Shown here piece by piece: positions 1,850-6,690 of a stretch of 6,715 bases of DNA. Under the pieces are notes generated by a model that saw nothing but the letters and a program-made list of their open reading frames with translations, ran no database searches and was not told the origin of the DNA. The stretch is from contig NW_021828996.1 in NCBI RefSeq assembly GCF_006345805.1, forward strand, positions 1-6,715, read 5' to 3'. Source of the DNA: Octopus sinensis (Eukaryota). The number at the start of each line of letters is the position of its first letter. Positions within the stretch are counted from its first letter, which is position 1. A program made the translations under genes and the position numbers.

Positions 1850-1901
1850 GATGTGTTGCAGCTACTGTTTATAACTTGCTCTAAGATTTATTATATATAT
1901 A

Positions 1902-2235
1902 TATCTGTAAAAGTAATATGTGACAATTATTCGGTAGCCATGATAAAACTCCGAGTTTCGGATGCCGAGGTGGAAATCTTACGCGAATACTATGAACATT
2001 TTTACCCCCTTACTTTTACTCCCTCCCCTCACCTAGCAGTCATTCAAATAACTCTTTTGTCTTAATAACGGTCAATCACACAGTAATTTCCCTTTGTATA
2101 ACAGTCATTTTTCATAGCATTTTTCCGATGGTCAGATAACTGAAGAGATGGCGGCGTGGGTTTCCACCTCAACATCCGAAACTCGGAGTTTTATCATGGC
2201 TACCGAATAATCATCACATATTACTTTTGCAGATA
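1902..2235. mobile_element. Inverted-repeat element with 75-bp arms carrying a hammerhead motif (Penelope-like/retrozyme-like non-autonomous element)
   Basis: 1902-1976 and 2161-2235 are reverse complements at 70/75 positions. The right arm overlaps the 3' half of the hammerhead motif. The inverted repeat is seen directly; the element class is inferred. Confidence 0.7.
2129..2202 (+). ncRNA. Type-I hammerhead ribozyme-like motif
   Basis: Stem I GATAA(2135-2139)/TTATC(2191-2195), extended by TGGTCA/TGGCTA with one bulged A. Core CTGAAGA at 2140-2146. Stem II GATG..GTGG-GTTT-CCAC..CATC with one extra C. GAAA at 2178-2181. Near-palindromic stem III ACTC-G-GAGT. Cleavage triplet GUU, cut after 2190. 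Confidence 0.7.
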
Positions 2236-2340
2236 AATTCCTCTATTTACATAATAGAGGTCATATTGAAGAGGGAAACAAGACTGTGGAGAGGAATTCC
2301 AAAATTTAGAGGAGCGAAGTAAGAAACTGGTACTGTAAAG

Positions 2341-3543: not shown

Positions 3544-3713
3544 ATAGGATTCTCTGAAAAAATACAATTACTGACTGGATTTCATGCCTCAAACTACAGG
3601 GTTAGGAGGCGTAAAATTTCGCGATATAATACTCTGTTCAGATTAAGTCTGAAAACAAACAAAGCTAGGGTTTCCTTAATTTAATCTTCCATCATTTTCA
3701 AACGAACCAACAA
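3544..3713 (+). repeat. Direct repeat copy B (170 bp) of 2372-2538
   Basis: Near-identical to copy A, 1172 bp downstream. Confidence 0.95.
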
Positions 3714-3989
3714 AAACCATAAAATCTTCAATCGAAATCGTGCATGTGTAGAGAGGAGAAGCCATGAATGTTATTAATAATATCGAATTAAGTATGCATG
3801 CGATTAAATTGTAAACACGATTTATTAAAAATGTATATTCGTGAAATGGCGATAAATGTTTATACACACACACGCGCACATATATATATATATATTCGTG
3901 CAAAGGAGATTTTCAGGCGAAAATGTGTGGAAGAATTGGTGGTGGGATGGGGGAAGCACCGTATATATTAAATTATAAATTAAATTAAA

Positions 3990-6331: not shown

Positions 6332-6434
6332 GGGTTAAATTAATTAATCAATTAATAATTAATAATTTTACCAAGTAGTTCGGTGTGTTAAAAGAACCAT
6401 TATCGGTAAACTTATACAAAAATTTTATAATTAT

Positions 6435-6586
6435 GAGCATAATTATAATTAGGGTTCAGTAGAATTTGCTTCACCACATACGGAAATTTAGAAATAGCAC
6501 TTAAAATACTACTACTATAATATATCTCCCAGACAGCAATACTCTACAACTCTAATTATTGCTGAACCCTAATTATAATTATGCTC
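6435..6586. repeat. Inverted repeat, perfect 25-bp arms, 102-nt spacer
   Basis: GAGCATAATTATAATTAGGGTTCAG (6435-6459) is the exact reverse complement of CTGAACCCTAATTATAATTATGCTC (6562-6586). Confidence 0.9.
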
Positions 6587-6655: not shown

Positions 6656-6690
6656 GTTTCCGACGAAGAGCTCCGCTCGAAACGTTAAAC
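6656..6690 (+). ncRNA. Minimal (Penelope-type) hammerhead-like motif, core variant
   Basis: GTTT-CCGACGA-A-GAGC-TCC-GCTC-GAAA-CGTT-AAAC. Stem I is GTTT/AAAC, stem II is GAGC/GCTC, and palindromic AACGTT replaces stem III (dimer type). The core is CCGACGA instead of CUGANGA, with one extra A. Confidence 0.55.

Follow-up and report, generated by a model that had tools for sequence, protein, structure and literature searches.

The closest described relatives of the ribozyme motif considered here belong to the Hydra clade of Penelope-like elements (PLEs), defined by RWK and DKT motifs, a CxCx5C linker, a C-terminal endonuclease with a CxxC motif, a length under 3 kb and (TA)n, which is listed as the Hydra insertion target (PMC8557442). 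In File S2 of that study, the hammerheads of 25 Hydra families from cnidarians, echinoderms and crustaceans are of type I, like our motif, and the 9-nt stem III of 19 of the 25 agrees with an initial annotation of the present DNA that had called a palindromic stem III typical of PLE hammerheads. The site is GUU (U17) in 10/25, and stem III is identical to ours, ACTCGGAGT, in 2/25; Hydra-2_aMil and Penelope-16_HM carry this 9-mer. These hammerheads differ from the family described below in carrying U4 in 25/25 cases and stems II of 3-7 bp with short loops, none of those given in File S2 having a 31-nt stem II region; extra or mismatched bases are common at their stem II junctions, and none is drawn there as a lone 3' base.

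One published member comes from an octopus. Hydra-1_Obim of Octopus bimaculoides shares with our family the C-terminal endonuclease, RWK, DKT, CxCx5C, the (TA)n target, a unit of about 2.5 kb and a hammerhead near the 3' end, which begins CUGAAGAGAUG and has a 9-nt palindromic stem III and a GUU site (PMC8557442). It is nevertheless a separate family: of 244 RT residues compared without gaps at one of our loci (L041), 148 are identical (61%, hand count), which therefore makes the two sister families, and its motif occurs apart in the genome, with 17 exact matches. Its stem II region has 23 nt as against 31 nt in our family, where the extra base is 3' and C4 cores are frequent. Hydra-clade hammerheads, one from octopus included, have thus already been published, and ours is an additional family of a described kind.

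Two other systems are comparable. The minimal PLE hammerheads of Cervera and de la Pena (2014, PMC4209133) share the location in pseudo-LTRs, the palindromic stem III, the dimer model, and the many dispersed truncated copies with close opposite-strand pairs; they differ in that their stem III is vestigial and their extra base precedes stem II on its 5' side, and a second motif of our DNA (6656-6690) is of that type. On the basis of that work and a review (PMC6765202), we propose for our family slow dimeric cleavage of tandem transcripts to unit length, perhaps followed by circularisation. The metazoan non-LTR retrozymes (PMC7229834; bioRxiv 10.64898/2026.07.22.740005) also carry a type-I hammerhead and have been proposed to derive from PLE terminal repeats, but they are non-coding tandem repeats of 150-450 bp, whereas our motif belongs to a coding element.

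The motif and the copy that carries it

Our window, the whole stretch of DNA analysed, is an entire 6.7-kb contig of the 2.72-Gb Octopus sinensis genome, rich in microsatellites and with no convincing gene. We hold it highly probable (roughly 0.85) that the motif at 2129-2202 is a type-I hammerhead of a Hydra-clade PLE family, that it lies in a 5'-truncated, partly inverted and likely inactive copy, and that in the parent element it likely acts as a dimer, held together by the palindromic stem III, that slowly cleaves tandem transcripts after U17.

Inspection of the sequence located every hammerhead element, with core, stems and junctions lying where the initial annotation had placed its type-I hammerhead with an intact core. 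On the forward strand, the 5' strand of stem I (2129-2139) consists of a distal part (2129-2134) and a proximal GATAA (2135-2139), and its 3' strand (2191-2202) begins with the proximal TTATC (2191-2195); the fold pairs 2135-2139 with 2191-2195 and 2129-2134 with 2197-2202 around a bulged A2196, so that stem I does close at the core and continue past a bulge, as had been claimed. The core segment CUGAAGA (C3 to A9, 2140-2146) has U4 in this copy and C4 in sister subfamilies. Stem II (2147-2176) is long and imperfect, with a 4-bp base (GAUG, 2147-2150, with CAUC, 2173-2176), G.G and C.C mismatches and a 4-nt loop; 31 nt in all separate the two core halves, and two G-to-A changes at 2171-2172 weaken the distal stem in the window copy. 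The extra nucleotide before G12 (2177) is C in subfamilies A and B and U in C, and pairing of G2147 with C2177 would, equivalently, leave C2176 bulged instead. It is followed by G12-A13-A14 (GAA, 2178-2180), as placed by the sequence and the family alignment, by stem III (2181-2189, ACTCGGAGT, a 4+1+4 palindrome ACUC-G-GAGU running from A15.1 to U16.1, placed by alignment and folding), and by U17 of the GUU site at 2190, 3' of which cleavage is presumed to occur according to hammerhead numbering. The motif has the CUGANGA / GAAA / UH core, the three helices and the open stem I of type I, with a single additional base where stem II meets the core. A canonical short loop is absent from stem II, and the stem I bulge could replace the loop 1-loop 2 contact.

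A relaxed type-I descriptor matched twice in the window (this motif and one other); in 500 dinucleotide shuffles of its 3,392 non-microsatellite bases the descriptor matched once, and a match of equal quality was never obtained (0/500). Rfam returned no hammerhead at E<=10 for the whole window or for 1850-2350, and its sensitivity here is evidently low, because the textbook minimal second motif was likewise missed. As a single strand the motif folds no better than shuffles (z -1.5) and is predicted to favour a competing hairpin, the ribozyme fold lying 6.0 kcal/mol above the predicted minimum in the window copy and 3.3-6.0 kcal/mol above it across three copies. One candidate for an inhibitory hairpin is UCCGA-AAC-UCGGA, in which the extra base pairs with the palindrome centre; this pair is C-G in subfamily A and U-A in C, both changes being CpG-type transitions, and the hairpin is broken in most B copies. 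The palindrome had been read either as a tight hairpin or as an intermolecular stem III, and prediction favours the second form: alone, the 9-mer does not fold (0 kcal/mol), whereas with a second copy it would form an 8-bp duplex with a central G.G at -9.7 kcal/mol.

The copy itself is a 286-bp stub of subfamily A, the 5'-truncated 3' end (pseudo-LTR) of a Hydra-clade PLE (1977-2262, forward strand; delimited by repeat matches and alignment, the 3' end being approximate at 2255-2262). It stands behind an inverted piece of the element's 3' repeat (1899-1976, reverse strand, 92% complementary to 2161-2238), the outer end of which is a (TA)n microsatellite (1891-1902); family copies end in (TA)n, and this run is the likely insertion target. 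Such inverted and truncated insertions are usual among PLEs, according to PMC8557442. The inverted piece holds the stem II loop, GAAA, stem III, the cut site and the tail and, having no CUGANGA in its sequence, is not itself a ribozyme. The genome yielded 3,593 first-look candidates for the repeat 1977-2262, the full-length matches among 40 scored being 90-94% identical. Every core position is kept in the window copy, an intact-core pattern found in 36/51 subfamily-A copies. Even so, the copy is likely an inactive relic, inert in place, because it has no partner motif, its distal stem II is weakened and folding predicts pairing of its inverted arm with 2178-2195, from G12 through stem I (p about 1.0), an arrangement that would sequester the 3' half of the ribozyme in any read-through transcript.

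The same contig holds a MITE-like sequence at 1722-1849, whose long ends are inverted repeats enclosing a short core and which is inserted behind an (ACAT)n run, and two copies of a 155-160 bp sequence (2386-2541 and 3557-3716), 97-98% identical and 1,171-1,175 bp apart.

The parent element and its placement

In longer copies, the sequence upstream of the motif leads into an endonuclease region and then into the RT. The ORF was surveyed at 21 loci, 20 of which were fetched for its 5' part, and is marked by the RT motifs DFY, DVSMGSYD and YKDD, by a CxCx5C linker and by the endonuclease region. Two loci, L109 and L110, have an open frame of 717 codons with RWK and DKT (as KRMRWK and SDKT), the linker CSCRNKELC and the endonuclease CxxC as CGLC, the CxH motif reading CPH; the L109 frame corresponds to a 708-aa RT-GIY-YIG protein. 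A head-to-tail tandem at L091 has hammerheads at 2359, 4928 and 7491, one per unit of about 2.57 kb, and pseudo-LTRs, partial tandems, an inverted 5'-truncated piece and a tail at one end are all present among family copies. Judged by its coding sequence, the parent is an EN+ PLE with a single ORF for RT and GIY-YIG endonuclease. The initial annotation had left a choice between a PLE and a retrozyme; the former is borne out by a 3' repeat lying downstream of an RT and GIY-YIG frame, and the coding unit of about 2.57 kb speaks against the latter.

Within the PLEs, the parent is assigned to the Hydra clade because RWK, DKT, CxCx5C, the C-terminal endonuclease, the unit of under 3 kb and the (TA)n ends all match, the domain names resting on motifs and a published alignment and the placement on these marks and the hand-counted RT identity to Hydra-1_Obim. 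Neptune, the first guess, and Nematis were rejected, as they need a CX2-5CxxC linker where the parent has CxCx5Cx5C; so was Naiad, which needs an N-terminal endonuclease where that of the parent is C-terminal. Pfam gave no family at useful E-values for five ORF fragments and none for the whole ORF, and a PDB sequence search gave nothing useful; a homologue search scored 7,999 proteins, 979 of them at E<=1e-20.

A young subfamily is represented by loci L091, L092, L098, L102, L106, L108, L109 and L110, which are 95-99% identical and have a C4 core. This young element is covered by contigs, one of them over 2,472 nt, from four runs that we guess to be RNA; strand, ends and transcription are not readable from such contigs. 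In one run (X8), a single 160-nt contig differs at 15 sites from L109:3583-3742, and the listed differences, read on the element's antisense strand, are A>G; they could reflect A-to-I editing. A metagenome scan matched four loci, and one metagenome contig (L137) holds a complete Hydra-like element of 45% protein identity, with both terminal repeats and canonical U4 hammerheads at 265 and 3024.

Subfamilies and core position 4

The alignment comprises 95 distinct copies (112 matches before deduplication), namely 51 of subfamily A, the window copy included, 31 of B, 9 of C and 4 of D; subfamily C is the youngest, at 98.6% identity to its own consensus versus about 95% for A and B. The extra C is present in 45/51 A and 29/31 B copies, with T in its place in 9/9 C copies, and U17 in 48/51 A copies. 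The two deviations noted in the initial annotation, the extra C and the GUU triplet, are therefore real, yet they are traits of the family and not decay of one copy. The unpaired centre of the palindrome varies freely across subfamilies, being G in A, and A in 17/31 B copies and throughout D and C. Fixed among subfamilies, on the other hand, are G5, A6, G8, A9, G12, A13, A14, A15.1, U16.1 and a permitted H17, and the proximal 10 nt of stem I show no change among the subfamily consensuses.

According to the initial annotation, core nucleotides no more conserved than the flanks would, together with a lack of cleavage, count against a ribozyme, and the answer on conservation depends on the level of comparison. 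Within subfamilies, counted outside CpG sites, 24 B copies picked by flank only have core changes at 8/239 positions and flank changes at 62/2191 (p=0.68), formally the pattern named there as unfavourable, and the result is similar for 30 of the 31 B copies, one truncated copy being left out (p=0.74). In subfamily A, where many copies were picked by a query including the motif, the core has changed less (8/503 vs 183/4764, p=0.008). Equal decay of core and flanks is expected for copies that are dead on arrival. Between subfamilies, core and proximal-stem positions differ less than flanks in A vs C (1/35 vs 26/89, p=0.0007) and in A vs D (1/35 vs 17/100, p=0.04), with no such excess in A vs B (0/35 vs 4/102, p=0.57). 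This pattern supports the view that core and proximal stems have been under selection between subfamily masters. A covariation check on 9 hand-picked copies found 0/25 pairs changed on both sides and 15 pairs invariant, and no measure beat shuffles.

The sole core change between subfamilies is U4C. Position 4 is C in 9/9 copies of subfamily C, the youngest and ORF-intact one, and exact core 17-mers genome-wide number 2,930 with C4 vs 2,284 with U4, against one control match each; some of the U4 counts may reflect CpG decay of C4. The variant is already known, since it is built into a published search descriptor (PMC13481778), and it has been reported to lower in vitro activity considerably while still supporting viroid infectivity (PMC3088659). 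We found no published report of this Hydra family or of U4C in PLE hammerheads, although Lunse et al. on variants, supplement file 1 of PMC4209133, and Repbase/Dfam may cover either. In a tree of 33 copies and 3 outgroups, the root of which is unstable, the seven typed U4 copies form one clade (99%) and C4 copies fall on both sides of it, so that a recent gain of U4C in the youngest lineage is unsupported; C4 may be ancestral in the parent Hydra family and U4 a reversion. Antisense ADAR editing as a source of U4C likewise found no support, there being no T>C excess on the young-subfamily branch (A>G 12, G>A 7, T>C 6, C>T 6).

The second motif of the window (6656-6690, forward strand) is a minimal PLE-type one, made up of GTTT, CCGACGA, an extra A, a GAGC/GCTC stem II, GAA, an ACGT palindrome, U17 and AAAC, and its core carries U4C. 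Just upstream, short inverted repeat arms (about 6420-6460 and 6555-6586, by eye) enclose about 100 bp, and one locus of this second family (L131) has RT-thumb and endonuclease-like pieces upstream of the motif. Exact 18-mers of the second family number 8,374 with C4 vs 4,165 with U4. A third family, CTGT-CYGATGA...GAAACTCWGAGTA-ACAG, has both U4 and C4 (L048:1952/1976, L096:406, L102:8794 and L059:9232, strand-oriented). That octopus PLEs have repeatedly amplified with a U4C core, in the Hydra family (down to its youngest ORF-intact lineage), in the unrelated minimal-hammerhead family and probably in the third, is a tentative proposal to which we give less than an even chance.

Flanking DNA of the loci also holds thirteen further hammerhead-like motifs, which represent some ten other families (L025:207, L127:461, L027:2840, L048:8038, L051:8699, L055:2318, L057:1443, L086:2693, L059:7775, L102:1736, L060:9444, L106:7149 and L126:1311), with folded stems II of 46-70 nt, too long for standard descriptors, and mostly perfect palindromic stems III of 8-12 nt. 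The 'half-core' cases of Naiad may be related to them; six long-stem-II motifs were not found in the PMC8557442 supplement, in which line breaks could conceal matches.

Proposed dimeric cleavage and its alternatives

We suggest that a pair of motifs on the same tandem transcript would exchange their ACUC-N-GAGU strands and so complete stem III, and that cleavage of this dimer after U17 would be slow, releasing RNA of unit length, which might then be closed into a circle by ligation. A nicked (TA)n target, 45-115 nt past the cut site, would be the starting point of reverse transcription, and the template would be uncut or religated at the cut site, because copy ends and the RT start do not sit there: judged by eye, 28 of 30 flank-picked copies continue beyond this point and the other 2 end short of it, and of 22 longer copies none begins there, the nearest starts being at -12 and +32.

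The same copy ends could be taken to mean that the fold is kept as a structure for dimerisation, packaging or RT binding, with catalysis weak or dispensable in octopus elements. The excess of C4 over U4 in both the Hydra and the second family, the uniform C4 of the aligned young copies and the poor in vitro cutting reported for animal PLE hammerheads (PMC4209133) would all suit such a role. Even so, it is improbable, given that the other catalytic positions, from G5 through the permitted H17, are fixed between subfamilies and that a natural U4C variant remains infectious in a viroid and is accepted by a published descriptor (PMC3088659 and PMC13481778). Much less credible is a non-autonomous retrozyme, with cleavage and circularisation of short tandem repeats. 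Although the type-I hammerhead with its palindromic stem III would fit, and the 3' end is present as a short direct duplication at a few loci (500 bp apart at L010; about 1 kb at L035), this reading is largely refuted by the upstream sequence, which enters the RT-endonuclease ORF, by full tandem units of about 2.57 kb and by the absence of any 150-450 bp tandem array around the motif within the window. Recruitment by the host, the ribozyme regulating a transcript at the window locus, is the least plausible of all, since the intact core that invites it sits in an unremarkable copy from a large family, with 90-94% identity to the nearest relatives, on a microsatellite contig with no convincing gene, and the copy has changes of its own that weaken stem II and an inverted arm predicted to block the motif.

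The window copy itself carries little weight, being one among thousands. At the level of the genome, Rfam and short-stem descriptors overlook abundant ribozyme motifs in Octopus sinensis. What hammerheads do for PLEs is regarded as an open question (PMC8557442), and the present family is useful for addressing it, as it offers ORF-intact tandem copies together with sister subfamilies carrying different bases at core position 4, in which cleavage rate could be set against amplification history. Should the repeated amplification of U4C cores prove true, it would suggest, together with the long stems II that evade descriptors, ribozymes that have been attenuated to a slow cleavage gated by dimer formation or that are retained for a role other than catalysis, and the natural U4/C4 sister pairs would provide a direct test of the purpose of PLE hammerheads.
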